Assembly (NCBI GenBank): GCA_041743505.1
Contig: JBGTMQ010000019.1
Coordinates: 6,147-70,146, forward strand
From: Candidatus Saccharimonadia bacterium
GTDB lineage: Bacteria; Patescibacteriota; Saccharimonadia; UBA4664
Reading direction: 5' to 3'
Length of the DNA: 64,000 bases
Shown here: one piece after another, positions 1,387-25,848 of the stretch
How the letters are laid out: each line of letters starts with the position of its first letter
Position numbering within the stretch: position 1 is the first letter of the stretch
Notes under the pieces: model-generated
The model's input: the letters and a program-made list of their open reading frames with translations, nothing else
Told to the model about the DNA's origin: nothing
Database searches by the model: none
Program-made: the position numbers and the translations under genes

Positions 1387-1392
1387 TCCGCT

Positions 1393-3918: not shown

Positions 3919-3956
3919 TAATACAACAATTAAGGTTGCGTGGTAAAATATACCCA

Positions 3957-4169
3957 ATGGGTAAAGCAACGACACCAGGACAAATTTTAAAAGAGGCCCG
4001 ACTTAAAAAAGGATGGACTCAGGTTGAACTCGCTAAAAAGGCCGGGTTGGGCGAAAATACATACCCCAAGATTGAGCGTAATGTCAGTAAGCCTGCTCCT
4101 GAGTCAATCAAGAGACTCATGAAAGTTCTTGATATTGATCCCTCGAAGCTCCCGTATTTGCTTGGTTAA
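3957..4169 (+). CDS. XRE-family helix-turn-helix transcriptional regulator (possible RM controller)
   Basis: HTH_XRE signature LKEARLKKGWTQVELAKKAGL...IER. Small ORF directly after res. An alternative TTG start lies at 3936. Confidence 0.7.
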   Translation: MGKATTPGQILKEARLKKGWTQVELAKKAGLGENTYPKIERNVSKPAPESIKRLMKVLDIDPSKLPYLLG

Positions 4170-4173
4170 GGTG

Positions 4174-4653
4174 CTATCTCCCTAATAACTTGTCAAGCTT
4201 CACAAAACTAATCATTTGGCGCGTAAGCTCCTCCGACTCAATCCGGCGCATTACCTCGCAACTATCGTTCTGAGAAAGAATATTTAGGCTACCCTCGTAC
4301 AGGATATAACCGTCAAGGATAGCCAACTTGCGGTGATGATTACCGGTAAATAGCACTGAAACTCCGATATCCTGAAGCAATGAGACTACCTCATTGGCCA
4401 CTATGTTCATCGGGGAGTCATGTTCTATAGGATCACGGGTATTGATTACTACACGAACCCCTCTTTTCGTAAGCCTACGAAATGAGGGGTAAAGCGCATT
4501 CATGCGCTTATGGGTTATAAACGGACATTCAATAAATAGCACACGTTTACACTTCTCAATATCCTTCATGAAAGCTGGATAGAAAGTCTGTTCGTTGAAG
4601 AGCTTTGATTGCACTAGATTGTCGTCCGCCCGACGCCGGAATATACTTAGCAT
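4174..4653 (-). CDS. Single-domain phospholipase D-family (HKD) nuclease, Nuc/BfiI-like
   Basis: Canonical HxK(x4)D(x6)GSxN motif HHRKLAILDGYILYEGSLN in a 159-aa protein. Good RBS (GAGGAAccatcATG). Confidence 0.75.
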   Translation of the reverse strand: MLSIFRRRADDNLVQSKLFNEQTFYPAFMKDIEKCKRVLFIECPFITHKRMNALYPSFRRLTKRGVRVVINTRDPIEHDSPMNIVANEVVSLLQDIGVSVLFTGNHHRKLAILDGYILYEGSLNILSQNDSCEVMRRIESEELTRQMISFVKLDKLLGR

Positions 4654-4906
4654 GATGGTTCCTCATCGGGCTCGTCCAAGAGTCGCCGGACTTCTTCAAC
4701 ATCACACTCCTCATCCTCTTCAAAAGGTTGGACTACGCCCTCTAAGCCCAGCCAAGAAATTATTTCAACATCCGGCATATGTAAACAGCACTATAATGCT
4801 TGCAATATATCAGATAATATGGCATATTAAGGAACGACTTGCATTACGCAGTCGTTCTTTGGTCTAGAAATATCCGAATCAATCCCCCGATCGGAAGGAG
4901 CTGGAG

Positions 4907-6286
4907 ATGAAACCTCTGGCTAGACAGTCCTTAGGCAGTAGTCTGGTAGGCCGGACCTTGACCGTACTAAGTGTTGCAGCATTAGCGGCGCTTGGAGCTA
5001 CTCCCGCTGCATCGGCAGACGAGGACGAGGCGCTGGAAAGAGCCAGTGCTATCGCCAAGTCGGCGTCCGTTAAGATAGTCACCGAATATACCGGGTACAT
5101 CTACTACACAAACGCCGATGGCTTTGTGTGGTCAGACGATGCTTATGTCATCAAAAGTGGTTGCACCGGCTTCGCGGTCAGTCCCGACGGCCACATTCTC
5201 ACCGCCGGCCATTGCGCCGATCCTGGCGAGGTAACCGCGAAATTCTTCGAAGGTTTCCTCACCGATCAGGTCAAGGAAGGCCTGATAACGGTACAGACTG
5301 CTAATGAATTGCTGGCTGACCCCACCGCCACCAAAGGCTGGAAGGTCGCCGGCTCTCCGAGCAGCGCAGCCGCCAACGTGAAAGTCGAGGTTACACAAAC
5401 CGTCGCTGCCACAGGTATCTCGGTTGGTAAGCCCTATCAGGCAGTAGTCCTTGAAAACCAACCACTCGATAGAGGCGACATCACGCTGCTCAAAGTGGAA
5501 CCAAACGAGCCGATGCCGTCCCTGCAAATATCACGCGCCAAGCCTAAAAACGGCGATTTCGTCGTCGCGGCAGGATGGCCGGCTTCGGTTGAGGGAGTTG
5601 TAGACCCTGGCTCAGAACCCACCGTCGAGGACGGACGAGTCACGAACGACAGTCAGACCTCAAACGGAAGCCCGTTCATCCAGACCAATGCACCCGTAAG
5701 TCAGGGTATGAGCGGGGGACCGGTCGTTAACAGGCAGGACGAGGCCGTCGGTCTCAACAGCTACGGCCCAAGCAAAGAGACCCAGTCGTTCAACTTCGCA
5801 GCCGGTCTCTCTACGCTCCAGGGCGTAATTGACCGTCATTCGATCAGCCAGGAGCTCAGTCCAGCCGACAAAGCCTTCCGGGACGGGCTTGATGCCTATT
5901 TCGAAGGTAAATACCGCTCTGCAGCTGAGCACTTCACGAGCACACTAGACACCATCCCAAGCCACGCGCAAGCTCAGAAGTACAAGGGCTTAGCAATCCA
6001 GAACTACCCGAACGAGAAGACAAGCTTCCTCTGGATCGCGATCTGGGCACTCGTCGGATTGGCAATCATCGGTCTACTCGCGCTACTGGTAATTCGAGTC
6101 ATACTTCCCCGAAGGCGCCAGCGCAATCAAGCAACGCTAGCGGGCCAGTCGGCTCCGGCCACCAGGAAACACTGCCCCGACTGCGGGCAAATGTACTCCA
6201 CAGCCGGAAAGTTCTGCACCGCTACTGGCCGGTCACATGACGGTCCTCAGGATTACCCAACCGAACAGCTGGGTCCCATCAGCTGA
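4907..6286 (+). CDS. Membrane-anchored trypsin-like (S1) serine peptidase with C-terminal zinc-ribbon
   Basis: N-terminal signal peptide. Catalytic His motif TAGHCAD and serine motif GMSGGP. A TM helix (WIAIWALVGLAIIGLLALLVI) is followed by a cytoplasmic tail with CPDCG...CTATG. RBS is GGAAGGAG. Confidence 0.75.
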   Translation: MKPLARQSLGSSLVGRTLTVLSVAALAALGATPAASADEDEALERASAIAKSASVKIVTEYTGYIYYTNADGFVWSDDAYVIKSGCTGFAVSPDGHILTAGHCADPGEVTAKFFEGFLTDQVKEGLITVQTANELLADPTATKGWKVAGSPSSAAANVKVEVTQTVAATGISVGKPYQAVVLENQPLDRGDITLLKVEPNEPMPSLQISRAKPKNGDFVVAAGWPASVEGVVDPGSEPTVEDGRVTNDSQTSNGSPFIQTNAPVSQGMSGGPVVNRQDEAVGLNSYGPSKETQSFNFAAGLSTLQGVIDRHSISQELSPADKAFRDGLDAYFEGKYRSAAEHFTSTLDTIPSHAQAQKYKGLAIQNYPNEKTSFLWIAIWALVGLAIIGLLALLVIRVILPRRRQRNQATLAGQSAPATRKHCPDCGQMYSTAGKFCTATGRSHDGPQDYPTEQLGPIS

Positions 6287-6310
6287 CGGACAAGATCATT
6301 CTACTACCAC

Positions 6311-6340
6311 CCGCATCAACCAGATGCGGGCTTTTACTTA
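6311..6340. terminator. Intrinsic terminator hairpin (CCCGCATC..GATGCGGG + TTTTACTT) after the protease gene
   Basis: GC-rich inverted repeat followed by a T-run on the + strand. An A-run precedes it, so it may also act on the minus-strand micro-ORF. Confidence 0.6.
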
Positions 6341-6587
6341 TACAGACTTCTTATCTTTTTTGACGCTCTTGGGCTTCTTCGTTTCTTTTTTCTTATTTTG
6401 ACCCTTCATGACGCCTCGCTATTCATAATGCTGCTGCTTACTATAACACGAATGCAATAAACGTCTATTGCGGTTATGGTACATTCCTGCGACAGTTAAC
6501 GCAGTAACGCGGGCTCACATGCCAAACAAAAGTCACCACCGGCTTAAACAGAAAAATCAAAAACCCGTGAGCACTCTGGAGCAAGTA

Positions 6588-6818
6588 ATGGTTTTGGTAG
6601 CCATTACCGAGCCACTCATGACAATACCGCAAATTATCGATATCTATGCCCACCCCGGACAAAATCAAGTCTCATTGCTAACCTGGGTATTATATTTATT
6701 CGCATCGGTCCTATGGCTTTTTTATGGTATAAAAATGCGCAACCGCCCCTTAATCTGGAGTGGTATCCTCTGGATGCTCATGGAAGGCGCAGTGGTCGGC
6801 GGCATACTGCTTTACTGA
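6588..6818 (+). CDS. SemiSWEET / PQ-loop small sugar transporter (3-TM)
   Basis: PQ motif in TM1 (MTIPQIIDIY) and WxxYG-like motif in TM2 (VLWLFYGI). About 76 aa with three hydrophobic helices. The upstream ATG at 6468 is a less likely start. Confidence 0.55.
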   Translation: MVLVAITEPLMTIPQIIDIYAHPGQNQVSLLTWVLYLFASVLWLFYGIKMRNRPLIWSGILWMLMEGAVVGGILLY

Positions 6819-6892
6819 GTAATTCACAAAAAAATAGTCCTGAGATAAGATGCAATCTAAACTGCAATCTCATCCCAGGACATTCCTAGAAA

Positions 6893-7654
6893 CTAACGCT
6901 GCTTCTGACGAAACCGGAGGTATCGCTCGTACAGCGATACGCTGCAGAGCGTCTTGCCATCGACCAACCCGCACTGGGGCAGGGTGATCAAGGCATCCTC
7001 GAGAGGAACGACAACCGGCTCTGTTTTCTCGTTCTCAATATCCAGTCCACCAGACTGCCGGCGAAGCTCAGCCAGCTGGGCGGGCGTCACAACCCCTTCA
7101 GCAGCCATGTACCAGGTCACTTCGTTGGTCATACCTGGGCTTACCAGTGCTGGGCGAGTGCTACCAGTAGCAGCTTCGGTCAAGTTAATAACCGGCCCCC
7201 ACTTAATGCCATCGGTACCGCGAAGCTCTTCACCGCGTTCTCGAATTGCAGCGGCAATCGGGCTTGCGTCACTTGAGTCGATAATTCCGGCCGGATTGGA
7301 CAAAACCCAGTCATGAGCGGCTAGCGTGCGCGATTGGCGCACGAATGCTACATGCGGACCGGAACCATCATCGAGAACGGTCAAAATGTCCACGGTCGGG
7401 TCACGCAGAATACCAGCCGTCAATACTTCTCGACCATTTTGACCAAGCGTCGTGACTGCAACCTGCAGCATCTTGATCTCTTTCGGCTCCCCCCAACTGA
7501 ATGCACCCTTAATCCGCACCCCGGTAAGGTTAGTATTCGGACCAGTCTGAGAGAATTGGTTGATCCACTGACGAAACAAACGCGAGCGTAGTACCGCGTC
7601 AACGTTAACACCGGCATCAGGCGCACAGGTAATATCAAGCTCGGTAACAGACAT
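6893..7654 (-). CDS. Hypothetical protein (253 aa)
   Basis: Long ORF with RBS AGAGGAAccccgATG at the internal Met (MSVTELD). No motif recognised. Confidence 0.5.
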   Translation of the reverse strand: MSVTELDITCAPDAGVNVDAVLRSRLFRQWINQFSQTGPNTNLTGVRIKGAFSWGEPKEIKMLQVAVTTLGQNGREVLTAGILRDPTVDILTVLDDGSGPHVAFVRQSRTLAAHDWVLSNPAGIIDSSDASPIAAAIRERGEELRGTDGIKWGPVINLTEAATGSTRPALVSPGMTNEVTWYMAAEGVVTPAQLAELRRQSGGLDIENEKTEPVVVPLEDALITLPQCGLVDGKTLCSVSLYERYLRFRQKQR

Positions 7655-7749
7655 CGGGGTTCCTCTCAGTATAGAGTACCAACAGCCATCAGCGTCACTA
7701 CACTGAAATCGTCCAGTGTCATCCATTTTATACATTAATTTTTACAAGC

Positions 7750-8712
7750 TGTCAATATATCGTAATGGTTCAATAGCTTTGCACCAAGGTTGTGCTTAAA
7801 CTGTTGCCATGCCATATACCTCAAACCCCAATCTGGAACGAGTCCGCATGCAGGCGGTCAAGCTTGTAAGGGGTGGGCAAACCACCCGTGAAGTAGCCCG
7901 TCATTTGGGGTATTCTCATTCCTCGGTGGTGCGCTGGGTGCAGCGGGTAGAGAAAGAACGGCTACATGGCAATGGCGGCGTACCGACCCGTTCCTCGAAG
8001 CCTAAGTCGCATCCCCGTGCCCTCGAACCGGCAATTGTTCAGGCCATTGTCAATGAGCGTCTGAAATCCGGCCGCTGTGCCGAAGTCGTTTACGAGGATC
8101 TCAAAGAGCGAGGAGTCCAGGTTAGTTTGTCGAGTGTCAAACGCACTCTCGACCGACATGAGCTACTCAAGAAAAAATCAAAATGGAAGCGGATCCGACA
8201 ATCGTTACCAAGACCCGACATAACCGCTCCCGGAAGCCTTATTCAAATGGATACGGTTCATTTTGTCGACTGGTCTACCGGAAAACGATTCTATATTTAC
8301 ACCGTTATTGACCTGTATTCCCGCTGGGCATACGCCGAAGTCCACGACAACTTGAGTCAGGCGCTGAGTCTCAAAGTAGCCCTCCGGGCCCAGGTCAAAG
8401 CCGGTTTCGGATTCCAGATGATGCAAACGGACAACGGACCCGAATTCCAAAAATACTTTCATGACATGCTGGCTGCCAGAAAGATTGCCCTGAGGCATTC
8501 ACGGGTACGACAGAGCAACGACAATGCTCATGTGGAGCGGTTCAACCGCACCTTACAAGATGAGTGCGTGAGTTCGTATCCGCTACGGAGGAATGTGACT
8601 CAAAGACGACTAGATGAGTATCTGGATTACTACAATAATGGCCGTCGGCACATGGGAATTAACATGCGGAGACCGGCGGAAGTGGTGCAAAGCTATTGAA
8701 CGCTAAACGACA
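7750..8712 (+). mobile_element. IS481-family insertion sequence (about 963 bp)
   Basis: Single HTH+DDE (rve) transposase ORF. Terminal TGTC ends with a 19-nt perfect subterminal inverted repeat GTTCAATAGCTTTGCACCA (7773-7791, and reverse-complemented at 8682-8700). The right IR overlaps the transposase stop codon. Confidence 0.7.
7809..8699 (+). CDS. IS481-family transposase (HTH + integrase core/DDE)
   Basis: N-terminal HTH followed by an rve core (DTVHF..., TDNGPEF, ERFNRTLQDE). Confidence 0.8.
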   Translation: MPYTSNPNLERVRMQAVKLVRGGQTTREVARHLGYSHSSVVRWVQRVEKERLHGNGGVPTRSSKPKSHPRALEPAIVQAIVNERLKSGRCAEVVYEDLKERGVQVSLSSVKRTLDRHELLKKKSKWKRIRQSLPRPDITAPGSLIQMDTVHFVDWSTGKRFYIYTVIDLYSRWAYAEVHDNLSQALSLKVALRAQVKAGFGFQMMQTDNGPEFQKYFHDMLAARKIALRHSRVRQSNDNAHVERFNRTLQDECVSSYPLRRNVTQRRLDEYLDYYNNGRRHMGINMRRPAEVVQSY

Positions 8713-9110: not shown

Positions 9111-9474
9111 TATAAAACATCCCTTATATGTCGAAGAGTATTGTCAGTGGATCTTAACTCTCCAGCGGCCTTCCTCGTGGGATAGTATTGCAACGTGCAG
9201 CCAGTCGGCTTTTTTGGGCTGGAGAGCGATGGCCAACAAGGCTACTAGCGCATGTTCTCGTAGCAGTAGCAGGATGACCGGGCGGCCTTCTGTTCCTCCT
9301 TGGCTCGTGATCCGCTCTAGGGCTCGCCGATTACCAATGGCTTCTTTGCCATGTGCTGACCTCCTTACAAAGGTGCGGATATGGTGCAAAGCCTATAAAA
9401 TAATGACACAAAAAATAAAAAAGTAAAGGCTCCGCTGGCGGCGGAGCCTTGTGCACGTTAGTGCGGTGGGGTCT

Positions 9475-10926: not shown

Positions 10927-10978
10927 AAAACCCACCGAAGCGAGATCACCAGTAGGTGAAATCTCGCCCCGGCGGGGG
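10927..10978 (-). terminator. Conserved family-B terminator repeat (copy 1)
   Basis: Same core as 13214-13268. Hairpin + TTTTTATTT on the minus strand, directly after the stop of 10982..11551. Confidence 0.65.
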
Positions 10979-10981
10979 TTA

Positions 10982-11551
10982 CTACGATCCTTTGAGGCGC
11001 TTCAGCCAGTAGGCAGCTCGGGTGGACTCATCCCGGTCACGGAGATTCTCGAGTGTGGCAATGACCATTGCCTGCTCCTCGGCAGTGAAAGCATGCCAGC
11101 GCACTGAGGCCAAGGTGGCAGAATTGTCTTGCTCGAGGCGCCAGGCGGCGTTTCGCCCCACTTTCTTGACCTCTGTCTTAGCGAACGAGTCCCAGAACTG
11201 GTGGTTGTCGTACAGCGTTACCATCTCAATGCCTCGTTCATCCCGGATAGAGGTGAGGTACATGCTTAGCACCTCGACCGTCCAGTCCTCCGGCGGCACC
11301 ACCGTCACGTAATCCGCCGGCCCGGGATTCTCGGCCGGCTCCTCAAGCCAGACGAAGCCTGCGGCTTCAAGGTCGGCCCGAGTGCCTCCAATAATGTGCA
11401 CTGGAATCTTGATCGCCCGGAGGTTGTCGTGCTCCACGTCGTGAGCCTGCAAGACACTGAAACCCTCGGCCAGGTGCATGGCACTATCGGGGTCGTTGCT
11501 GCTTCCAATTGCGCTCAACGCAACTTGGAACGGGCTGGGTGATGCGGTCAT
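10982..11551 (-). CDS. Hypothetical protein (189 aa)
   Basis: RBS AGAGGAGAAcccATG. Followed by a family-B conserved terminator. Confidence 0.55.
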   Translation of the reverse strand: MTASPSPFQVALSAIGSSNDPDSAMHLAEGFSVLQAHDVEHDNLRAIKIPVHIIGGTRADLEAAGFVWLEEPAENPGPADYVTVVPPEDWTVEVLSMYLTSIRDERGIEMVTLYDNHQFWDSFAKTEVKKVGRNAAWRLEQDNSATLASVRWHAFTAEEQAMVIATLENLRDRDESTRAAYWLKRLKGS

Positions 11552-12189: not shown

Positions 12190-12298
12190 TCTGGCTCCCT
12201 TCGGAAAGCTAGATGTCAAAGAAACCTCAATATAATACCATATTTAGGGAACAAAAGCAACATCAAATTCAATGAAGACATAAAATACTCGGCCAGAA

Positions 12299-12368
12299 GT
12301 GAAAACCCCGCTGGCTGCGAGGCTCACCCATACGGGTGGTCTCGCCCTGGCGGGGCAAAAAGCGGGGA
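12299..12368 (-). terminator. Conserved family-A intrinsic terminator repeat (copy 1)
   Basis: 50-nt core CCCCGCTGGCTGCGAGGCTCACCCATACGGGTGGTCTCGCCCTGGCGGGG, near-identical at 4 loci. On the minus strand the hairpin is followed by TTTTCAC. Confidence 0.7.
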
Positions 12369-12371
12369 CTG

Positions 12372-12836
12372 TTACTCCCCGAGTCGAGATTTCAGGCTAT
12401 GCCACGCCGTCGCGGCAACCTTGGCCCAGTGGTAAGCGGCCGCCGGTATGAGCTCCGTTGGCGTGGAGGGGTAGCAATCCATTCGCTCCTCCGCCCGGCG
12501 GCTGGCTTCAGCGAAGGTTAAACTCTCACCGGGCGCCAGTAACTCCAGTTGATCGAGGTAAAACATCTCAATTGTATCCTCGTACGTCTGGTATCCGAAC
12601 TGCCCTGCGCTGTGACATTCCCCCATCGTAGTGAACCGGCTCTGCAGCGCGTCACTGAAAGCCCTCGGCCGGGTCAGCTTGTCGTTCGGGTCGACCGGCT
12701 CAAAATCTGGGGTCACGTTCAGGAGGCGGTAGTACCGGTCTCCCTCAACCAAAGTAATTGTGAGGCTGCCGTCCGGGTTGACCTCAGCCGCCACCAACCG
12801 GATTACGTTCTGGGCATCAACTACTGAAACGGACAT
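12372..12836 (-). CDS. Hypothetical protein, paralog of 17852..18325
   Basis: RBS AGAGGAcaacATG. N-terminal about 50 aa (SLTITLVEGDRYYRLLNVTPDFEPV) is alignable with SVTITFLLDGRYYTAERIRPDFPAV of the paralog. Confidence 0.6.
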   Translation of the reverse strand: MSVSVVDAQNVIRLVAAEVNPDGSLTITLVEGDRYYRLLNVTPDFEPVDPNDKLTRPRAFSDALQSRFTTMGECHSAGQFGYQTYEDTIEMFYLDQLELLAPGESLTFAEASRRAEERMDCYPSTPTELIPAAAYHWAKVAATAWHSLKSRLGE

Positions 12837-13213
12837 GGTTGTCCTCTCGAGCATGCATCACTACAGATGCGAGCAAATGCGAACACATACATAATAACAT
12901 AAATCCTATGACTTTGCAAGCAAAATAGTGTAAAATGATGGATTGTACCACGTCGGCCACAGTCGTAACGGACACTTCACTTATCGTCAATCGAAACGCC
13001 CCGCACATTAGCGGGGCGTAGTGGTCTCGGCCTACTTGAACTCGGCCAGCCGTTAGAGAAACAACGTCAGCGCGCGGCCACCTCACGCCTAACGCTCAAA
13101 CCGGCCTGTCCGATAGATCTAGGACTTGGCAACGGATCACCTCCTTTCTCTTAATACAATCGCTATCTTATAGGGCCCCCGCCAAACGGTCAATGCCATC
13201 AGCACATGCCAAG

Positions 13214-13268
13214 AAAAACCGCCGGAGCGAGATCACTAGTAGGTGAAATCTCGCCCCAGCGGGGTGGG
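13214..13268 (-). terminator. Conserved family-B terminator repeat (copy 2)
   Basis: GCGAGATCAC(T/C)AGTAGGTGAAATCTCGCCCC core shared with 10927-10978. Followed by a T-run on the minus strand. Confidence 0.65.
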
Positions 13269-14285: not shown

Positions 14286-14410
14286 AGCCATCCTTTCAGG
14301 GTACGAGCAGAGGTTTGCTAGCTTCCTGAGCTAGGCACAGGATTTTAAATCATAACACAAAAAATGAAAGTTGTCTACTATAGGCGAATAACAATCCAAT
14401 GTTGCCAAAA

Positions 14411-14466
14411 TAAAGGCCCCGCTGGCTGCGAGGCTCACCCATACGGGTGGTCTCGCCCTGGCGGGG
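14411..14466 (-). terminator. Conserved family-A terminator repeat (copy 2)
   Basis: Core identical to copy 1, immediately 3' of the gene 14467..15273. Confidence 0.7.
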
Positions 14467-15273
14467 CTAGGCAGGCTGAGCCCGGCTCTCATGTTCGAGC
14501 ATTATCGTCCCAGCCCGGATGAAACGGTCTGTGTAATTCGAGTCCGGATTGCTATCCTCGAAGGTGGCATGGCCGCTCGGAAATATGAATCCAAAGGCTT
14601 CATCACCACCCTCCTTGTCCGAAGGCTCGCTGGTGACTTCACCCTCGAACATCTTGCCAGACTGGCCGTTTTCCTCCCATTTCAACTCGCATGGACATAT
14701 CTTTGTGATACGGACAACGACTATCTTCGAGTAGGGATTGTCAGCCTCAGGCTCTGTCGTAAAGGTTACGACGCTACCAACACCCAGCGACTCGTAGGGT
14801 TCCGGGTACGTGGCCATGAAACGGCGCATGGAGAACATACCAATCGCTTCAGCTTCGGTAATCCGGAAACTTCTCCAGTACCAACTAGGATCGTACGTTG
14901 CATCCGGTATGCCCAGAGCTTCCCAATCCACGCGTGAAAGCCGTTTGAGGAAACCATCAATGAAGTCAACGTTTGGTCGTAAGGCATCAAATTCCGCCTC
15001 ACTCAGTTTGTGCCGGCTTGTCAGCAGGATCTTGCGCTCATGGCGAACAATCAAAACGAGGTCAATACGATCTTCGACGCGAACAATCTTACTGGTGAGC
15101 AGCCGGTTCAGGATAGCGACTTCGTCAGCAAAGATCTTGAGACATGATGTGAGCTCATCGCCTTTGAGATCTTTCAGGAGTTTGGCGTCCCTAACCACGT
15201 TTCGCTGCAGTGTATTTGCTAGCCAGGAAAGCTCTTCCGAATGAAGTCCGTAACCCTCTACCTCAGCGGACAT
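14467..15273 (-). CDS. Hypothetical protein (268 aa)
   Basis: ORF with an RBS at the internal Met (MSAEVEG). Extended -10 promoter upstream. Confidence 0.5.
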   Translation of the reverse strand: MSAEVEGYGLHSEELSWLANTLQRNVVRDAKLLKDLKGDELTSCLKIFADEVAILNRLLTSKIVRVEDRIDLVLIVRHERKILLTSRHKLSEAEFDALRPNVDFIDGFLKRLSRVDWEALGIPDATYDPSWYWRSFRITEAEAIGMFSMRRFMATYPEPYESLGVGSVVTFTTEPEADNPYSKIVVVRITKICPCELKWEENGQSGKMFEGEVTSEPSDKEGGDEAFGFIFPSGHATFEDSNPDSNYTDRFIRAGTIMLEHESRAQPA

Positions 15274-15370
15274 TACTTGCCCTTCTGTGAGAAAACAATC
15301 GAACATATATATAAAAACGCGAAACCAAAATAATTACAATGTGGGCCCGGCCAACGATCAGCGCCGCATA

Positions 15371-15403
15371 AAAATAAAGGCCCCGCTAAACTTCAGCGGG
15401 GCC
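15371..15403 (-). terminator. Family-C terminator (GGCCCCGCtaaacttcaGCGGGGCC)
   Basis: Near-identical hairpin also at 16075-16104. Preceded by an A-run (a T-run on the minus strand). Confidence 0.6.
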
Positions 15404-15433
15404 ATCAGCGGCTGTTGATAGGCAAACGTGGTG

Positions 15434-16003
15434 TCACGCCTTATCAGATTCCCATGGGCCGAACCACAGTCCAGTGGCGGCCAAGAGCGACCGGCGGGCC
15501 ATATCCCGGTCACTGGCCTGGTAGGCCGGACTGAGCGCGGCGTAGCGCAAGCGGGCCAATGCCCGCCAGCGTTGCACCTTTTCCGGATTCCACGCTAACA
15601 GCATATAGGAAACCCAGTGCGTGGTCTGCTCCCATTCCTGCCGCTCCATCGCCTCAAACCGCACCGGCCGGATCGTGGTCCGGCACTCGGTCTCGATGAT
15701 GTGTTGGGCAATCCGCGCCCAGCGTGTGCAATAGATCTCACGCTCATAAGGTGTCAATTCTTCGAAAGATTTGCGCATTAGGATGCAGTAGGCTGCATCC
15801 TCACTTGGGACAGCGTGCATCCAGGGCTCAAACATATCAATCCATTGTTCGTGTTCGAGGTCCCCAAGTAAATGCAGGAGCGGGAAGTCTGGGTCAAATG
15901 CCCGCAACTCCTCATCCCGCCGGTCATTACTGAGCGAGTCGAAGGCGAAAGTGGGCCGCCACTCGCCCATGTCAGCGTACGGGAAACTTGGGCGGTCAGT
16001 CAT
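15434..16003 (-). CDS. Hypothetical Trp-rich protein (189 aa)
   Basis: Long ORF flanked by a family-C terminator and an AT-rich promoter. Confidence 0.5.
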   Translation of the reverse strand: MTDRPSFPYADMGEWRPTFAFDSLSNDRRDEELRAFDPDFPLLHLLGDLEHEQWIDMFEPWMHAVPSEDAAYCILMRKSFEELTPYEREIYCTRWARIAQHIIETECRTTIRPVRFEAMERQEWEQTTHWVSYMLLAWNPEKVQRWRALARLRYAALSPAYQASDRDMARRSLLAATGLWFGPWESDKA

Positions 16004-16074
16004 CGTGGTCCAATCGGCCGAATTTTTGATCTAGGACCGCTATATAATACAATATTTAATTGACAATTGCAATA

Positions 16075-16104
16075 GAAAAACCCCGCCAAACTTCAGCGGG
16101 GCCA
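16075..16104 (-). terminator. Family-C terminator (copy 2)
   Basis: CCCCGCCaaacttcaGCGGGGCC + A/T runs. Confidence 0.6.
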
Positions 16105-16113
16105 GCTCATGGT

Positions 16114-17478
16114 CTAATTTCGAAGCTTGGTCCTGTGGCCTAAAGCCGGATTGGGCGCCTGACCACGCTGATGAGTCCGGACGTAGGTTTCGCCTTCAGA
16201 TAAGCTAATTCCTCGCTCCTCCCAAGCTAGCTGGCGCGCCCTTTCGGTCGCTGTGCACCCCGCCGGTAGCGGGCGGACGAAGCCGGTTACGGAGTGACGA
16301 GCCGTCGGCTCACGGTCCAAACGCTCCGTCTCGGCCATAGCATCCGCCATTTCTCGCTGCAGAGCGAGCCGTACGGCTGCTGGATCCCCGAGCACGCGCA
16401 GGCGGGGAAGCACCAGGTCGCGCAGACCGGCTCTCCATCGCTGCCTGTGCTCGTCACGTTCGCGGTGTCCCTTTGGCAGTACCGGCCAGGCCGGCACTGC
16501 CAAGCCAGGCGCTACGTACTGCGGTACAATCAAGTTATACAGCCTCAGTAGCTGAATAATTCGGAAGAGCGTGTAGGCTACAGTCCGGTCCGCCTGAACA
16601 AAGCATTCGCGCAGTGATACGGCGCCAATCCCAACATCAGTCGTAAACTCGCCGGCAACGCCAATGGCGGCCATCAGCTTACTCCGAAAGTCGAATTCAA
16701 CGCCGGCGTAGTCGAGGTTCTCAGCCCGGTGCGCCACCCTCGTTGGTTCAAGGTGCCCAATTTCGCTCCTTGCAGCCAAAATTGCCAACGCCAATGGCTT
16801 TGTCAACTCGAGACGGTCGTCGCTGTCTATGTCACGTACGACGTCATAGCCGTCCACGAAGACCCAGGCGTCCTCATTGCTATGCAAGATACCGTCTTGA
16901 AACAAACAGGGCTTCACGCCATACGCCCGGTGCTCCGCCAAGGCCGTCGCCAACTCGGAGATCACTCGCTCGCCGTCTTTGATGCCCACAGCAGCCAGCT
17001 GTTCGGCCGCTTCCTCGTCAGCCGGCATCTGCCGCTTCAGTAGGTGCACAGCGTAGTGGTGGGCCACGTAACTCTTGTAGAAGCTACCCGCCTTGAAGTA
17101 GAGCCAGCCGTGGAACTGTGACAGCCGGAGCGACTCCACGAACTGCCCTAGCTCTTTCAGGTACGACTCGTCCAGAGGTAACCGCACCGCGCCGAGCCGC
17201 GCCAGCGATACCGCCAGCATATTGCTAATAACTGACGCATGCTGGTAACCCACAACCTCCTGTTTGATCGTGTCGATCGTGTCCATAACATCCAGGAGGC
17301 GCTGGAGTTGGTTGCGAATCGGCCCGGCTATTTCGAACCAGCCGTATATCCGGTGAACCGCCGCGGCTATTTGCGCAGCCGATACGGCATCAGGCTGGCG
17401 CAGCAGCTTAGTAACCAGCAGCTCCAGCGAGGTGTCACGCACTCGTCTCGGTGCCTGGATAGGCCACGGGATAGTCAT
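16114..17478 (-). CDS. Hypothetical protein (about 454 aa), largest cassette gene
   Basis: RBS GGAAGAAGGtagccATG. Contains an Rx4H-like motif (GHRERDEHR), but no confident domain assignment. Confidence 0.5.
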   Translation of the reverse strand: MTIPWPIQAPRRVRDTSLELLVTKLLRQPDAVSAAQIAAAVHRIYGWFEIAGPIRNQLQRLLDVMDTIDTIKQEVVGYQHASVISNMLAVSLARLGAVRLPLDESYLKELGQFVESLRLSQFHGWLYFKAGSFYKSYVAHHYAVHLLKRQMPADEEAAEQLAAVGIKDGERVISELATALAEHRAYGVKPCLFQDGILHSNEDAWVFVDGYDVVRDIDSDDRLELTKPLALAILAARSEIGHLEPTRVAHRAENLDYAGVEFDFRSKLMAAIGVAGEFTTDVGIGAVSLRECFVQADRTVAYTLFRIIQLLRLYNLIVPQYVAPGLAVPAWPVLPKGHRERDEHRQRWRAGLRDLVLPRLRVLGDPAAVRLALQREMADAMAETERLDREPTARHSVTGFVRPLPAGCTATERARQLAWEERGISLSEGETYVRTHQRGQAPNPALGHRTKLRN

Positions 17479-17780
17479 GGCTACCTTCTTCCGCATCCGA
17501 TGTAAATGACCAGTAAACTATACTTCTATAGCATAAAATAAACAAAAAGTCCAAAAATAACTAGCCGGCCCCCAAAGCGGGAGCCGGCCATTGTCGCTGT
17601 GCAAGATTCAGGATAGGTCGCAGTAGGCGCTGTACTCATGAAGCACGTCGGGGCCCAGGTATGCCCGGACTGAGTTGCCCGAGGTGCGGCAGCCGGTGGC
17701 CACCGGGTCTTCAATCGCGTTGTGATAGTAGCCGGTGTTAGAACCGTCCGTATTGAAATAGACCTTGGTTAGGCCTGCAA

Positions 17781-17839
17781 AGTGAAAACCCCGCTGGCTG
17801 CGAGGCTCACCCATTCGGGTGGTGCTCGCCCTGGCGGGG
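17781..17839 (-). terminator. Conserved family-A terminator repeat (copy 3)
   Basis: Core is 48/50 identical to copies 1 and 2. Confidence 0.7.
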
Positions 17840-17851
17840 CGGTGTGGAAAT

Positions 17852-18325
17852 CTATTTTCCGGTGATGATCTTTTCGAGCCGCAGCCAGACCGTTGTGAAG
17901 ACCTTGAGGGCCTCGTAGTACGACCTGTTGGTCGGCTCCACATCGTCCAGCCTACAGCTGATGAGGTAAGCCTGGAAAGCCGGTCCAAACGTCTGATCGC
18001 GTTTTCTGAGGAGGTCTAGGATGAGTTTCAACTCGCAGCGCTCTTCAGGCAGGAAGTACCGCCGCGATACTCCGGTGTTCTCGACTTCGAGACGCCGGTC
18101 GTCCAGCCTGTCGCCTCCGGGGGAGTAGATGGAACCGGCAAACACCAGCTTGGCATCGTCGGGCACGGCAGGGAAGTCTGGACGGATGCGCTCGGCAGTG
18201 TAATACCTGCCGTCGAGCAAAAATGTGATGGTGACACTTCCGCCGTGAAGACTCAAATCCACACGCTGGGGCGTGAAACGGGCGTTCAGCTCAGCCATAC
18301 GGTCATCGGTAGTGCTGGCGGTCAT
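17852..18325 (-). CDS. Hypothetical protein, paralog of 12372..12836
   Basis: RBS GAGGAGtggtccaaATG. Shared N-terminal motif with 12372..12836. Confidence 0.6.
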   Translation of the reverse strand: MTASTTDDRMAELNARFTPQRVDLSLHGGSVTITFLLDGRYYTAERIRPDFPAVPDDAKLVFAGSIYSPGGDRLDDRRLEVENTGVSRRYFLPEERCELKLILDLLRKRDQTFGPAFQAYLISCRLDDVEPTNRSYYEALKVFTTVWLRLEKIITGK

Positions 18326-18601
18326 TTGGACCACTCCTCACTTGGGGCTAGGTCATCTTGGAGATGTTTAAGGTCCTGTTATCCGAACAGTAATATAATA
18401 ACACACAAGGCGTAAAAAGTCAAGGTGAAATTACTGACAGTCAATCGATATCGTCCTTAACTCTGCTTGCTCTTGATCTAGGCCACCTCAAATGAAGCCT
18501 ACCTGCCAGCACCCACCCCGCAGCCGAACCTGGTTTGCGGGGTGATTATTATTAAAAAGGCTCCATAAGTACAATCAAACTTCCTTTTCAGGGTGAGTTA
18601 G

Positions 18602-18630
18602 TTGACACAATGACAATCATATTATAGAAT
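18602..18630 (+). promoter_or_regulatory. Strong sigma70-type promoter (TTGACA-17-TAGAAT) driving an ORF-less transcript
   Basis: Perfect -35 TTGACA at 18602-18607, a 17-nt spacer, and TAGAAT at 18625-18630. Confidence 0.6.
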
Positions 18631-18636
18631 ACCAAA

Positions 18637-19355
18637 TGTTACTTGAAAGAATATTGTGTAGCGTTAATTGATCTTTTACTCAAAAAGCTTAGTTAACGCT
18701 ACACAAGTAGCGACAAACATGCACCAGGGCACTGGCGAAGCGCGCACTTGCCACCGCCTGCTGCATGAGTAAAAACGGTACTCCAGTCTGGCGGGACCCT
18801 CCGCACCTCCGCCTTCGGGCTGAGGTAAGTGCCGTTGCATATCGTACCTTGCTGAGAGGTGCGGTCAGTGCCTTGCGTGGTGCTGTCATACTCAGCCGGG
18901 CCAGGGGTTAGTCGCCTGTCCCGTTTGCTAAGAGCCGGAAACGACTGCTGTGCCGTGGTGCATTCCCACGGCTGACACTGATTCAGTGTTGCTCGCCCGT
19001 AAGCGGGTTGGAATGCCCATTGGGAACATGTCAGGAGGTAGCTCCTCCGCATGTGAGCCGCCCAAAGGCCTACGCTCAGTCTTAGGCAAACTGAGGCAGC
19101 ACAGCCCATCAAGGGCCTCCCCGCTGCACCAAGAGGGGATACTTCTCGGGTAAGGTTCTAGCGCCATTGCGCACCCTATAGAGCGGAACCGGGACGCAAC
19201 TCGGAACCGTGGGTACTCGCCAAGCCTCCCGCTAAGTCGGGGAACGAGCGATAGATGGCTGCAACTCTGTGTGTCCCGAGGACACAGAAGCTATCGAACA
19301 ATTACCTACGCCTACGGCATCTGCCGCCGGCCGGCCCCTTCGGGGGCCTTTTTTT
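18637..19355 (+). ncRNA. Candidate large structured non-coding RNA (about 720 nt) of unknown class
   Basis: Bounded by the promoter above and an intrinsic terminator (GGCCCCttcgGGGGCC + T7 at 19333-19355). About 60% GC. Numerous local hairpins (GGAGGtagctCCTCC, GCGCcattGCGC, CCCGtaagCGGG, CCCGctaagtCGGGG, 12-bp stem GTGTAGCGTTAA/TTAACGCTACAC). All six frames carry only junk ORFs rich in Cys, Trp and Arg. Confidence 0.5.
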
Positions 19356-19396
19356 GTCAAAATCATCGGAGCACTGACCCTGATCGCTTTGCACAA

Positions 19397-19594
19397 CTAC
19401 AAAGTTACCAGCCTCTTTGAGCTGCCTTGTAATAATACCGCCAGTCTTGACGCCACTAAATCGGCTATGAGCTGATGACCTTCATCATTGGGGTGGACAC
19501 TATCCGGCAATAACTCAGATTCTAATTCCGCCTTTGAAAATGGCTCAAATATATCAACAAATTCTAAGTTGTTGTATGAGCAAAAATTACCCAA
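19397..19594 (-). pseudogene. Remnant of a TesA-like SGNH/GDSL hydrolase (C-terminal block V only)
   Basis: LLPDSVHPNDEGHQLIADLVASRL matches GDSL block V (DGxHPN..A..IA). The upstream part of the gene is absent in all frames. Confidence 0.55.
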
Positions 19595-19662
19595 CGTATT
19601 GTCAAATTCTTTAATTCGCGCTATCGCAACTAAAATTCAGAGACAAATTCAGGCAGGTACGT

Positions 19663-20241
19663 TTACAGTCTGGCAACTACAACAACGATAAATATTCCTG
19701 CAGCATTCAACAAAAAGGTTACTACGAAAAATTGCCAGCGTCGTATTTTAGATAGCCCCAGCATACTTACTCCAATCTCATCAGGGAGCGGAGAGGCAAT
19801 AATAGCTGCTCCAATCACAGGTAGCGTCCAGGCAAATAGTGGAGTTTTAAAAAGTGTTCTTAGGTAAGGATGATTAATTTTACTAAACAATGGCTGAAGC
19901 TCGTCAAAAACTCTATCTTTCATAAAACGAAAAATAATGTAATCACCCACCATTGCTCCGAGGCCAGCAAGAAGTGCTACTTCAATAGGGTGTAGGCTGT
20001 CGGCGAGATGATATAGGACAACCGCCGCAGGAGCAACCGTAAAAGTAGAAACAAAAAATATTCCTGTAATGAAGGCACCGAGATAGCCCAGGTTACCAAT
20101 CTGGCCAATAATACTATCTACGAAAGGTGTCTGTGCAAGGATGAAAAACAAAACGAGACTTAGCAATAAAAAACATGTATTTTTATATCGCCACCGACGC
20201 CAACGTCTACGCATCTGTTTGTAATGCTTGTGTTTCGGCAT
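19663..20241 (-). CDS. Membrane protein, DedA/VTT-like (192 aa)
   Basis: Several TM helices with a basic N-terminus. Lies in an AT-rich patch (19360-20300). Confidence 0.4.
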   Translation of the reverse strand: MPKHKHYKQMRRRWRRWRYKNTCFLLLSLVLFFILAQTPFVDSIIGQIGNLGYLGAFITGIFFVSTFTVAPAAVVLYHLADSLHPIEVALLAGLGAMVGDYIIFRFMKDRVFDELQPLFSKINHPYLRTLFKTPLFAWTLPVIGAAIIASPLPDEIGVSMLGLSKIRRWQFFVVTFLLNAAGIFIVVVVARL

Positions 20242-20349
20242 TGTTTATGGAGTATCTCATAATGACGAGAAAAGAACATAATACAGAGGTCATTTCGCTT
20301 ATGCTTGGAGGGCCAGATCAGATTCGAAGTAACAATCACAAAACAAAGT

Positions 20350-20390
20350 GAAAACCCCGCTGGCTGCGAGGTTCGCTCATAGCTAGCGGG
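20350..20390 (-). terminator. Family-A terminator, truncated variant (copy 4)
   Basis: Shares AGTGAAAACCCCGCTGGCTGCGAGG with the other copies. The hairpin overlaps the stop codon of 20383..21162. Confidence 0.55.
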
Positions 20391-21162
20391 GCGGGTGGTC
20401 GGTCACGACAACAGGTTGAAGCTCAGAATGGCGTTCCATGAGCTCCTCGTACTGGCGATCAAGCCAATCCATCATGCTCTGGTCATGCCATTCCGCAAAC
20501 TCGCGGTCGGCAATGCGCCGGTAAATGGCGTTCTGCCGCTCAACCCATCGCAGGTAACGCCTGTAGCGTCGGCCTCGCGTAGGAATGGGATGACGCGGCC
20601 GCTCGACACCGAAGTGGTCGTACAGGATCACTAGGATGGACGGCACCGGCAACGCGTCTTCGAAATCATGTGGATACTCCTGCCCCTGCCAGAGCATTAC
20701 GCGCTGGAAATGCTGGACCGTACCCGTCGCAAGCCACTCGAAGAGCAGGGTGTCACACTCCGGACAGCGGTTACACTGAGCGCTGATCTGCTTGTACGGG
20801 ATGAAATGACCACAGTGGTCGCACTTGGCCACCAGCGGCAAGTACAGCACGTACTCGTCCGCCCAATTGAGCGGACTGTCAAAGCCGCCATCGTAAGAGT
20901 AGCCGTAGCTGCACAGCTCAGCGATGAGTTCATCCAGCGTCTGCTGGATAGGTGGCAGGTCAGGCCGGAAGTGTTCACTAATCATGATGTGAACATTGTC
21001 GTCCTCCACAGTGCTCCAGCGAACATGCCCAGTCGTAATGCGCAAACCTTTGCGCAGCAAAGCTGCAGCGCGTGCATGCTGCCTACGAGTAGGGCCGCTA
21101 GGACAGCGCAAGCGCTTCAGGGCCTTTTTCGCCTTACGGGGGAGCTTCTTGGTTGGGTCCAT
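20383..21162 (-). CDS. Hypothetical protein with Cys4 zinc ribbon (CDHCGH...CNRCPEC)
   Basis: RBS GAGTGAGGttcgtaATG. Basic N-terminus and a zinc-ribbon motif. Confidence 0.5.
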   Translation of the reverse strand: MDPTKKLPRKAKKALKRLRCPSGPTRRQHARAAALLRKGLRITTGHVRWSTVEDDNVHIMISEHFRPDLPPIQQTLDELIAELCSYGYSYDGGFDSPLNWADEYVLYLPLVAKCDHCGHFIPYKQISAQCNRCPECDTLLFEWLATGTVQHFQRVMLWQGQEYPHDFEDALPVPSILVILYDHFGVERPRHPIPTRGRRYRRYLRWVERQNAIYRRIADREFAEWHDQSMMDWLDRQYEELMERHSELQPVVVTDHPPR

Positions 21163-21242
21163 TACGAACCTCACTCTGTCGGTGGGAGATGGATTAGGTA
21201 CGAGACAATAATTATATTAACATAAAACACAAATAATTGCAA

Positions 21243-21318
21243 TGGTGGGCCCGGCTGGACTTGAACCAGCGACCAAGCGGTTATGAGCCGCCTGCTCTAA
21301 CCACTGAGCTACGGGCCC
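21243..21318 (-). tRNA. tRNA with CAT anticodon, Ile2 (lysidine)-like
   Basis: Cloverleaf: GGGCCCG acceptor stem, D-arm GCTCAGTGGTTAGAGC, anticodon loop CTCATAA, T-arm GGTTCAAGTCC, encoded CCA. Sequence closely resembles enterobacterial tRNA-Ile2 (ileX) as recalled from memory. Confidence 0.75.
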
Positions 21319-21351: not shown

Positions 21352-21747
21352 ATGAAACTGCCCGGCCTACCTAAATTCGAGCTCAACCTGGTGAACGTCC
21401 TGAACGTAGCCGGTGCTGCCGCTATCATATATTTGGTCGTGATTCTTGGCCAGACCATTACCAAGAATTACACCTTAAACAAGCAAGTTTCTGACCTGCA
21501 AGAGCAAATCACGCAGCTACAGGACCAAAAAGACACGTTGGCGTATAACATCGAGTACTACAAGACCAAATCGTATCAGGAGCGCGAGGCGCGCGCTAAA
21601 CTCGGTTTGCAGATGCCGGACGAGACCGTCGTCATACTGCCAGCGCCCAAAGTAGCGCCCACCCCGGTTCCCGAATCGCCAACCACCGCCATCAAAAAGA
21701 AGTCCAATTTTGCCCAATGGGTCGATTTTCTGAGCGGTAAAAGCTAG
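21352..21747 (+). CDS. ftsB: Septum formation initiator family protein (FtsB/DivIC-like)
   Basis: N-terminal TM helix then a coiled coil (QVSDLQEQITQLQDQKDTLAYNIEYYK), typical of FtsB/DivIC. Confidence 0.55.
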   Translation: MKLPGLPKFELNLVNVLNVAGAAAIIYLVVILGQTITKNYTLNKQVSDLQEQITQLQDQKDTLAYNIEYYKTKSYQEREARAKLGLQMPDETVVILPAPKVAPTPVPESPTTAIKKKSNFAQWVDFLSGKS

Positions 21748-23027: not shown

Positions 23028-23450
23028 ATGAATAAAGCGCTTTCCTCAATCTATCAACACATCGCTCCGGCCCACCGCGCGATTTGGCGCTTTGGCATAT
23101 TGCTATGGCCTGGTTTCTTCTGGAAATATGCTTTGGCATCGGGCAGTTATAAGCCGGAGAGCTTTTTTTCATTTGTCGTGGTGGTTTATCTGGGACTTGA
23201 ACTGGCAAATATTATCCACGAATACCAACGCCCTCGACCGGATAAACTTGGCGTGTCCCAATCTTCCAAAGAATTTATAAAATCATTAATCTGGATTCAC
23301 GGGAGCTTTACGATCGTTTGTCTGGTTATCCAGCGTGATCATCTCCTGACCAGCTTACCTTGGCTAGCACTAATATGGCTTGTCGCAGTAGGAGCTTATT
23401 TCCTCCGCCCCAAGCCAATAACTGACAGCCCAAAATTTGCTATTGCATAG
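23028..23450 (+). CDS. Small membrane protein, tandem paralog 1 (YxHIAPAHRAIWR family)
   Basis: Leaderless start directly after a TGTATAAGT -10 element. Conserved N-terminal motif SIYQHIAPAHRAIWR followed by 3-4 TM helices. Confidence 0.6.
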   Translation: MNKALSSIYQHIAPAHRAIWRFGILLWPGFFWKYALASGSYKPESFFSFVVVVYLGLELANIIHEYQRPRPDKLGVSQSSKEFIKSLIWIHGSFTIVCLVIQRDHLLTSLPWLALIWLVAVGAYFLRPKPITDSPKFAIA

Positions 23451-23471
23451 TAATTAATGTATAATATAATT

Positions 23472-23867
23472 ATGGACCAAACCATTTCTACCGCTTACAA
23501 ATATATCGCTCCGGCCCACCGGGCGATCTGGCGACTAGATATTATTTTCTGGCTTGGCATTATCTTCTGGTACGCCAACAATCCGGGTTACCGTACCCTG
23601 GCGGACGCGCAGGTATATTATTTATTTGTCATCATACTCAGCATTTATCATGTTGTGTCAGAGTATCGGCATCCGCGCCCAAATGAACTGGGGCTCTCTG
23701 CACCAAATGAGGCGAGGTATTGGTTCGCAGGATTTGCCGTTATTATTACAGTGCTTTTGTTGCTTGTTAACGTGATGATGAATAAACAAAGTGATTTGTT
23801 ATGGCTTCTAATGGCATTAGCCGCTACGGGTGTAGCCTACACTATCCGTCCGAAGCCGGTAGCTTGA
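23472..23867 (+). CDS. Small membrane protein, tandem paralog 2
   Basis: Start ATG immediately after TGTATAATATAATT. Motif TAYKYIAPAHRAIWR. Confidence 0.6.
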   Translation: MDQTISTAYKYIAPAHRAIWRLDIIFWLGIIFWYANNPGYRTLADAQVYYLFVIILSIYHVVSEYRHPRPNELGLSAPNEARYWFAGFAVIITVLLLLVNVMMNKQSDLLWLLMALAATGVAYTIRPKPVA

Positions 23868-23915
23868 AGTCCTAAATTTGCCTTTACAAAGCTAACACTG
23901 TATAAGTGCATCAGC

Positions 23916-24311
23916 ATGAACCAGACGCTTTCCTCAATTTATCAATACATTGCTCCGGCCCACCGGGCGATCTGGCGCATGCCTATCTTTTTGTGGCTTA
24001 CCTTAATCTTCTGGTATGCGAATAACCCGGATAAATGGACTATTTGGGGCCCCCTGGAATACATTGTCCTTTTTCTCGGCTTTAGTATTTATTATATTGC
24101 CTCAGAATTCCGCCATCCTCGACCAGCCGATCTAGGCTTCTCTGGTGGAAATGAGGCGAAATACTGGTTTATCGGAGTTGCTGTATTAGGCATGGGAGTA
24201 TCGGTCCTTATTAACGGACTCTTGCAAGAGCAAAACGGCTTGCTATGGCTTCTGCTCGCATTAGCTGCCACCGGTGTAGCCTACGCTCTCCGTCCGAAGC
24301 TCAAAACTTGA
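23916..24311 (+). CDS. Small membrane protein, tandem paralog 3
   Basis: Start after TGTATAAGTGCATCAGC. Motif SIYQYIAPAHRAIWR. Confidence 0.6.
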   Translation: MNQTLSSIYQYIAPAHRAIWRMPIFLWLTLIFWYANNPDKWTIWGPLEYIVLFLGFSIYYIASEFRHPRPADLGFSGGNEAKYWFIGVAVLGMGVSVLINGLLQEQNGLLWLLLALAATGVAYALRPKLKT

Positions 24312-25800: not shown

Positions 25801-25814
25801 CCAAGCAATTATCA

Positions 25815-25848
25815 TCAAAAAGATTAGCCTAACCGCTAATCTTTTTCA
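25815..25848. terminator. Bidirectional terminator (AAAGATTAGCctaaccGCTAATCTTTTT)
   Basis: Perfect hairpin flanked by A and T runs. Lies between the tRNA (+ strand) and the minus-strand gene 25850..26179. Confidence 0.65.

Follow-up and report, generated by a model that had tools for sequence, protein, structure and literature searches.

Why does a chromosomal stretch from a Candidatus Saccharimonadia bacterium carry the end of a transfer RNA (tRNA) gene twice, and what is the DNA that separates the two copies? The window, as the whole analyzed stretch is called here, is 64,000 nucleotides (nt) of contig JBGTMQ010000019.1. It contains an intact gene for tRNA-Ile2 and, about 5.9 kilobases (kb) from it in direct orientation, a second copy of the last nucleotides of that gene together with the sequence that follows them. 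This repeat is probably an attachment-site (att) type scar within an additive, tRNA-linked flexible island. The locus is defined by the following features.

21243 to 21318, minus strand: tRNA-Ile2 gene (anticodon CAT), called by ARAGORN and scored at 73.5 bits by Rfam; intact, with CCA encoded
21225 to 21255: right copy of the repeat, attL-like, made of the terminal 13 nt of the tRNA and 18 nt of 3' trailer
15322 to 15352: left copy of the repeat, an attR-like scar, GCCGGGCCCA-CA and then TTGTAATTATTT
14467 to 15273, minus strand: gene X, 268 amino acids (aa), identical to P0022, just outside the left copy

The repeat and the tRNA-Ile2 gene

The similarity of the two copies is not reached in shuffled sequence. 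In a gapped alignment they are identical at 27 of 31 positions, with a 1-nt gap within CCA, and the local-alignment score of the pair is 19.5. None of 200 dinucleotide-preserving shuffles of the window scored as high (mean 12.2, standard deviation 1.1, maximum 16.5), and the observed score tops the best of them by 3 units. The right copy spans the 3' end of tRNA-Ile2 and the adjoining flank. Its tRNA-derived portion is the 13 nt GCCGGGCCCACCA, which comprises the 3' strand of the acceptor, the discriminator, and CCA. The left copy likewise consists of a 13-nt tRNA end and about 18 nt of 3' trailer, and it is non-functional tRNA-end DNA. It lies between the terminator of the gene at 15434-16003 and the promoter region of gene X, adjoining X on its upstream side. 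The two copies have diverged by a substitution plus an indel inside CCA, and no duplicated sequence was found outside the 31 nt of the repeat. The segment does not have the form of a transposon with a target-site duplication, as the repeat is about 31 nt long and there are no inverted repeats at the segment ends.

A sequence-only reading of the window had proposed that a displaced 3' end of tRNA-Ile2 is repeated here in direct orientation, and the alignment bears this out. Both strings that it quoted occur in the sequence, the right one at 21231-21256 as it gave. The left one, which it placed at 15338-15362, lies at 15328-15352, its start having been set 10 nt too high. It assigned 13-15 nt of the repeat to the tRNA and 14 nt to the flank; the lower figure for the tRNA is the correct one, and the trailer is longer, at about 18 nt. 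The 14-nt flank motif, AAATAATTRCAATG, occurs twice in 64 kb, both times at a copy of the repeat.

The non-random element of the repeat is the juxtaposition of the flank motif with a match to the tRNA end. Taken alone, the decamer TGGGCCCGGC is not significant, and a test for extension of the left copy into the T arm found nothing significant (p ~0.9). The trailer of the right copy includes a -35-like TTGCAA for the downstream gene, and TTGCAA/TTGTAA in the repeat flank is similar to the -35 elements seen at other promoters of the surrounding gene array. In closer relatives CCA-N2-6-AATTAT is found behind tRNAs of many types (Ala, initiator and elongator Met, Ile2, Phe, and Val), at 23 of the 73 distinct tRNA ends. 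The flank half of the repeat is therefore generic to a degree: any tRNA trailer or promoter of the clade would share part of it, and the identity of the flanks argues less strongly for an att core than one might suppose. At the same time, a clade-wide trailer motif fits a left copy that is a genuine former tRNA end with its trailer.

The trailer motif itself, CCA-N2-6-AATTAT(T/C), may be a clade-specific processing or termination signal. It is often followed by a hairpin terminator (25804-25815 in the window; loci L019-L027, L056, L016, and L061 among related sequences). The combination of ATTATTACAGAY plus hairpin behind tRNA-Phe, tRNA-Ile2, and tRNA-Val was at one point read as the end of a mobile block containing X. 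This reading was dropped because an AATTAT(T)CAG trailer followed by an A-run stands behind tRNA-Ala in L056, and AATTAT-type trailers stand behind the initiator and elongator tRNA-Met genes of relatives.

Older tRNA fragments were sought in all intergenic regions of the array. The candidates at 13021-13041 and 9396-9438 are within noise, and no tRNA fragment was found inside the segment between the repeat copies.

The tRNA is a native core gene. It is 76 nt long with its 3' end at 21243, and DivIC (21352-21747) is divergent from it. More than 15 metagenome loci retain the divergent pair of tRNA (CAT or TAT) and DivIC, with DivIC identity falling as low as 34%, and this is the basis for regarding the tRNA as native. 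The label tRNA-Ile2 holds because the gene is 92% identical to Escherichia coli genes annotated as tRNA-Ile, the positional orthologue in relatives has the anticodon TAT, and the window has a TilS-like PP-loop gene at 34073-34963, just upstream of FtsH. The TAT orthologues are found at 9893-9969 in L004/L019, at 1402-1478 in L020, and at about 884 in L027, and none of these lineages has a gene at the syntenic TilS position. The pattern suggests that a switch of the tRNA anticodon may be coupled to loss of tilS, as judged at the syntenic position only.

The history proposed for the repeat is an insertion at the 3' terminus of the tRNA gene. The left copy would be the former 3' end and trailer of tRNA-Ile2, displaced by 5.9 kb by the inserted DNA. 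The incoming DNA would have brought its own copy of the final 13 nt and trailer, which would now complete the tRNA gene, and the old end would have remained joined to gene X. The likeliest mechanism would be site-specific integration at the asymmetric 3'-end sublocation by a presumed enzyme of the tyrosine integrase type. In an unoccupied site the tRNA is expected to be followed directly by ...TTGYAATTATTTTGGTTTCGCG and X. The repeat copies predict an empty-site junction of ...ATATATATAAAAACGCGAAACCAAAATAATT[A/G]CAATGGTGGGCCCGGCTGGACTTGAACC... and a circle junction of ...TAATTATATTAACATAAAACACAAATAATT[G/A]CAATG(G)TGGGCCCGGCCAACGATCAGCGCCGCATAAAAATAAAGG...

The tRNA/DivIC junction and gene X in related genomes

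The DNA that follows the tRNA is variable among relatives. Loci L004/L019, about 75% identical to the window, are syntenic with it to the right of the tRNA (DivIC, bactofilin, FtsH, and MurJ), and synteny ends 26 nt past the tRNA 3' end (aligned flank 21217-21242). On the DivIC side, L019 and L020 share 96.7-99% identity; in the other direction their similarity ends 26-28 nt after the tRNA 3' terminus, indicating that the site varies at the strain level. The content after the tRNA differs among the window, L004/L019, L020, L017, and the P0008 contig. The window's strain is represented by two further contigs only, L002 and L015, and both have the same occupied state. A scan of genome contigs with the bactofilin-domain neighbor found one locus, L001, which is distant and non-syntenic.

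In one relative, L020, this junction is repeated independently: the sequences at 622-649 and about 1391-1420 align with a score of 15, compared with a maximum of 10.5 in 30 shuffles, and they enclose a cassette of about 750 nt with one gene and a hairpin like family D6 of the window (listed below). The protein encoded by this cassette is 59% identical (E = 5e-75) to that of the window gene at 10982-11551. The homologue in L020 is tRNA-proximal, whereas the window gene sits 10 kb from the tRNA. The sequence-only reading had suggested older accretions to the left of the segment, and this repeat-bounded cassette lends support to that suggestion. A tRNA-end repeat was sought in 14 orthologous loci besides the window, and among them L020 alone has one.

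Gene X appears next to several different tRNAs. In L017 and L018 its homologues (49-53% identical) follow the same tRNA-Ile2 at a distance of about 190 nt. At its far end the L017/L018 locus has ABC-transporter genes matching the far end of the L004 region, so it represents the same chromosomal region. The order of tRNA and then X in L017/L018 (X about 51% identical) would be the nearest thing to the unoccupied arrangement. In L016 a tRNA-Phe 3'-end repeat precedes an X homologue (score 17.5, with none of 200 shuffles as high), and in L061 an X homologue stands behind tRNA-Val(CAC). Since X homologues are also found behind tRNA-Phe and tRNA-Val, X is hotspot cargo and not a fixed neighbor in the chromosome. 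In L059 the tRNA-end-like fragment GGTCCACCATGCAATTAT lies about 150 nt upstream of an X homologue, with other same-strand genes in front of it; this match is marginal (p ~0.02). The recurrence of fragments of the 3' end only, in L020 at the same junction and in L016 at tRNA-Phe, points to systematic crossover at tRNA ends. The tRNA-Ile2/DivIC junction would be a conserved hotspot with a build-up and turnover of orphan cassettes that each hold one gene and its own terminator.

The X family (P0022-P0027) is found behind tRNAs at 31-360 in L016, 1-255 in L017, and 325-574 in L061, and also at 1722-1899 in L059. L017 has a second tRNA-like fragment, TTTCCCTGGCTAGATCCACC, after X, and it is near-identical to the fragment before X in L059. 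An AlphaFold model of X built from 6 sequences has a mean predicted local distance difference test score of 54.6, and a profile search of the PDB with X found nothing credible.

The segment and the surrounding gene array

The 5.9-kb segment contains five orphan genes, a GDSL pseudogene, and a unit without open reading frames (ORFs). From the tRNA outward these are the following.

20383 to 21174, minus strand: tRNA-proximal orphan of 263 aa (259 aa as called in L002), with a CxxC...CxxC zinc-ribbon-like motif
19663 to 20241, minus strand: 192-aa membrane protein, weakly similar to DedA/VTT (Pfam VTT_dom E = 0.028, sub-threshold)
19397 to 19636, minus strand: C-terminal remnant of a GDSL/SGNH hydrolase, a pseudogene (PF13472 E = 8e-7)
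18602 to 19356, plus strand: ORF-less unit, with a promoter-like site at 18602-18630, a palindrome at 18654-18706, and a terminator-like hairpin at 19333-19348
17852 to 18334, minus strand: 160-aa orphan, followed by hairpin terminator D1 (17780-17839)
16114 to 17496, minus strand: 460-aa orphan (454 aa as P0028), followed by hairpin D5 (16071-16104)
15434 to 16003, minus strand: 189-aa orphan with hairpin D5 (15371-15404) behind it; the final gene of the segment, next to the left copy

The 263-aa orphan occupies the usual position of an integrase gene, and it has no recombinase signature. Of the cargo listed in the sequence-only reading, the GDSL remnant is secure, although only the last third of the PF13472 profile is matched (positions 126-178 of 178). 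The DedA assignment is weak (VTT E = 0.03), and the supposed paralogy of the 160-aa orphan to the gene at 12372-12854 comes down to a match over 30 aa only. No island or array protein has a match in PHROGs or PADLOC, and scans of viral contigs with the X, 460-aa, and 263-aa proteins found no relatives.

The ORF-less unit is the sole plus-strand unit of the array. Its longest ORF is at most 68 aa, and about 1 kb of the segment is ORF-free. The promoter-like site has 11 of 12 matches, the arms of the palindrome are 24 nt long, and the RNA fold has a z-score of -3.78. The unit has no Rfam matches and no Pfam matches in six frames, including any to an integrase pseudogene. The stretch is possibly a structured RNA of about 0.7 kb, with the predicted plus-strand RNA at about 18637-19355.

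Nothing points to movement of the 5.9 kb as a unit. For the 460-aa gene, the one cargo gene with which homologues were sought, a single distant homologue was found, P0029 (51% identity), which stands among trypsin, YcaO/nitroreductase, and glycosyltransferase genes with no adjoining tRNA, and the other island genes have no homologues among all of the relative loci that were fetched. The sequence-only reading treated the 5.9 kb as one module. No sign of this was found: the 460-aa gene occurs alone elsewhere, and a pseudogene and an ORF-less stretch lie inside the segment.

The segment is part of a larger array of orphan genes in a bacterial chromosome. The window has genes for DivIC, a bactofilin-domain protein, TauE, FtsH, MurJ, MurF, LepA, DnaK, DnaJ, and MurC. 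Every gene between 9.9 and 21.2 kb lies on the minus strand, and nearly all are orphans without a match in Pfam, PHROGs, or PADLOC. Behind each array gene, at a distance of 0-30 nt, stands a long GC-rich hairpin with a U-tract, and several genes have upstream sites resembling TTGCAA-N17-TATTAT. Three families of hairpins are distinguished.

D1: 12297-12356, 14408-14467, 17780-17839, and 20346-20371
D5: 15371-15404 and 16071-16104
D6: 10927-10977 and 13214-13264, with a copy in the relative L004/L019 at 7904-7943

The D1, D5, and D6 hairpins are 34-60 nt long, and copies up to 100% identical are found behind unrelated orphan genes. Within the window they are restricted to the array at 9.8-20.4 kb. 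D6 is 90% identical over 40 nt in L004/L019, where coding DNA is only about 75% identical. The short-read contigs L002 and L015 end exactly at D1 copies.

Two other regions of the window are of note. The block at 34-8699 has an N6/N4 DNA methylase and a ResIII helicase (resembling type III restriction-modification), a PLD-family nuclease, a trypsin-like protease, a NUDIX protein, and an rve-type DDE transposase. The first 5 kb of the window is low in GC, at 45-48%. Like the orphan array next to it, this block was probably acquired. On the other side of the tRNA, 23028-24311 on the plus strand holds three tandem paralogous genes for membrane proteins of 131-140 aa, 32-55% identical, with repeated upstream regions at a spacing of 444 nt.

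Origin of the segment and its significance

Several observations weigh against an att-type scar at this tRNA. No integrase or site-specific recombinase was found among the ORFs scanned with Pfam and NCBIfam across the 64 kb, a scan that covered about 60 of 81 greedily selected ORFs of at least 60 aa and included most of the ORFs of about 110 aa or more. The absence of an integrase between the copies, claimed from the sequence alone, thus extends to the scanned ORFs of the whole window. The GC content of the segment (0.48-0.58 at 15-21 kb) is not distinct from that of the core part of the window (about 0.50-0.60). The 460-aa gene is found apart from its segment neighbors elsewhere. A same-species empty site and a circular junction are not among the sequences compared, and the arrangement in L017 is no clean ancestral empty site, as X is itself cargo. 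The flank of about 26 nt beside the intact tRNA also resembles that of L019/L020, which places the junction with variable DNA beyond the repeat. This shared flank is compatible with shared arm sequences and is no proof of them.

Six-frame translation of the ORF-less part of the segment likewise showed no recombinase. No ORF of the island has a recombinase match in Pfam, PHROGs, or PADLOC, and the only recombinase-type gene in the window is the DDE rve transposase at 7809-8699. A search of viral contigs with the att junction gave no matches. The sole viral contig matching the 3' half of the tRNA, L060, was rejected as an unrelated rpoD-tRNA-Met locus that is not relevant here. In L060 (IMGVR_UViG_3300018079_000176, 2218-2818) a 31-nt 3' half is identical to that of the window tRNA, and the tRNA-Met is followed by an ORF that by eye resembles a P4-type integrase. 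It illustrates the use of the same tRNA-end sequence as an att site elsewhere.

Even with these observations, an att-type scar in an additive island is the probable origin of the repeat, and the 5.9 kb as it now stands is better read as accreted and partly decayed cargo than as an intact mobile element. The pseudogene, the ORF-less stretch, the indel in CCA, and the lack of any sign of joint movement all support the latter view. As the segment has no recombinase of its own, it is probably now immobile or movable only by an enzyme acting in trans.

An origin without site-specific integration is unlikely. The repeat could have arisen by illegitimate or homologous recombination, for example by import of a foreign segment with its own tRNA end through the conserved tRNA and a repeated hairpin, or by partial duplication of the tRNA locus followed by deletion. 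The lack of a detected recombinase favors such an origin. The near-identical D1, D5, and D6 hairpins across the array are possible recombination substrates, and L019 and L020 differ by replacement of content and not by simple insertion. However, fragments consisting of the 3'-terminal 13-24 nt plus trailer recur independently in L020, L016, and perhaps L059, and in the window nothing is duplicated beyond the 31 nt.

It is improbable that the DNA at 15353-21224 is one discrete, mobilizable satellite island that lacks an integrase and uses a recombinase located elsewhere in the genome or in a phage. Integrase-less islands with repeats are on record (bioRxiv 10.1101/2020.11.02.365908), and a single well-preserved repeat pair with no internal tRNA fragment is what is seen here. 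Yet the repeats already differ by a substitution and the CCA indel, and the truncated GDSL gene and about 1 kb of ORF-free DNA lie inside the segment. In addition the 460-aa gene is alone in another genome, the island genes are without relatives in viral contigs, and the only other sample of the strain is likewise occupied.

A more speculative idea, which has little probability, is that the array is an integron-like, recombinase-poor platform for gene capture in an uncultured lineage. Single orphan genes would be inserted at the 3' ends of tRNAs (Ile2, Phe, and Val) by an enzyme that is trans-acting or of an unrecognized kind, with the tRNA end acting like attI and the portable D1, D5, and D6 hairpins like attC. 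The idea is compatible with the data in that the hairpins occur only in the array, reach 100% identity behind unrelated genes, and are better conserved across genomes than coding sequence, and in that assemblies break at them. Like integron arrays, this array is unidirectional and made of mostly single-gene units with imperfect end hairpins that fall into families. Unlike integron arrays, it has no IntI among the window ORFs scanned, its anchor is a tRNA end and not attI, and its cassettes appear to have their own promoters. By inspection the hairpins resemble GC-stem/U-tract terminators, with no evident attC core (RYYYAAC / GTTRRRY).

Least credible of all is a coincidence of two promoter- or trailer-like motifs beside a GC-rich decamer with no historical duplication: the -35-like elements, the clade-wide AATTAT trailer, and the non-significance of the decamer alone speak for it, but at its second site the flank motif directly adjoins 10 nt that match the tRNA end exactly and in register, and the combined alignment exceeds every shuffle.

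The scar shares features with known tRNA-linked islands. In such islands the direct repeats are 15-221 bp long with a mode of 20-25 bp, most include the 3' part of the tRNA, and some islands have repeats without an integrase (bioRxiv 10.1101/2020.11.02.365908). As in att-bounded islands, the segment lies immediately 3' of a tRNA, has a direct repeat of about 25-30 nt with the tRNA 3' end at its distal side, and runs from an intact tRNA to a partial copy of it. In contrast to them it has no integrase or excisionase and no atypical base composition, and the repeat reaches about 18 nt past the gene end and includes only 13 nt of the gene. The additive flexible islands of Alteromonas and others (PMC4898812) are similar in having a conserved tRNA hotspot with differing cassettes in close strains, partial tRNA repeats behind some cassettes, and cassettes common to divergent genomes at differing array positions. 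The locus studied here has a conserved core flank with variable content behind the tRNA across genomes, and partial tRNA repeats behind cassettes in the window, L020, and L016 (tRNA-Phe). It differs from those islands in that nearly every cassette consists of one orphan gene with a promoter-like site of its own and a long terminator hairpin, and in that the host is apparently an uncultured lineage known from metagenomes only.

The tycheposon islands of Prochlorococcus are another point of comparison. At these tRNA-anchored islands serial integrations push older DNA outward and leave partial tRNAs behind (bioRxiv 10.1101/2020.12.28.424599). As in the window, most of the island DNA belongs to no identifiable element, and one of the target tRNAs has the anticodon CAT (bioRxiv 10.1101/2020.12.28.424599). 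The hallmark modules of tycheposons, a tyrosine recombinase and replication genes, were not found in the window, and membership in this group is therefore unsupported.

The feature is of an ordinary kind, a textbook tRNA-end footprint, in an unusual and poorly known host. Insertion beside a tRNA is a common route by which bacteria acquire genes. Its less ordinary aspects are the host lineage and the hairpin-terminated single-gene cassettes. As an att-type scar, it would give a concrete, datable boundary in a hypervariable region of an uncultured bacterium, and the orphan genes beside the tRNA would have come by insertion at the tRNA end and not by local divergence. The tRNA-Ile2/DivIC junction would be conserved as a hotspot in a wide range of related metagenomic genomes, and it may help to separate the core from the flexible genome in metagenome-assembled genomes that assemble poorly at this point. 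The value of the finding lies in annotation and in an entry point to the unexplained hairpin-terminated cassettes.

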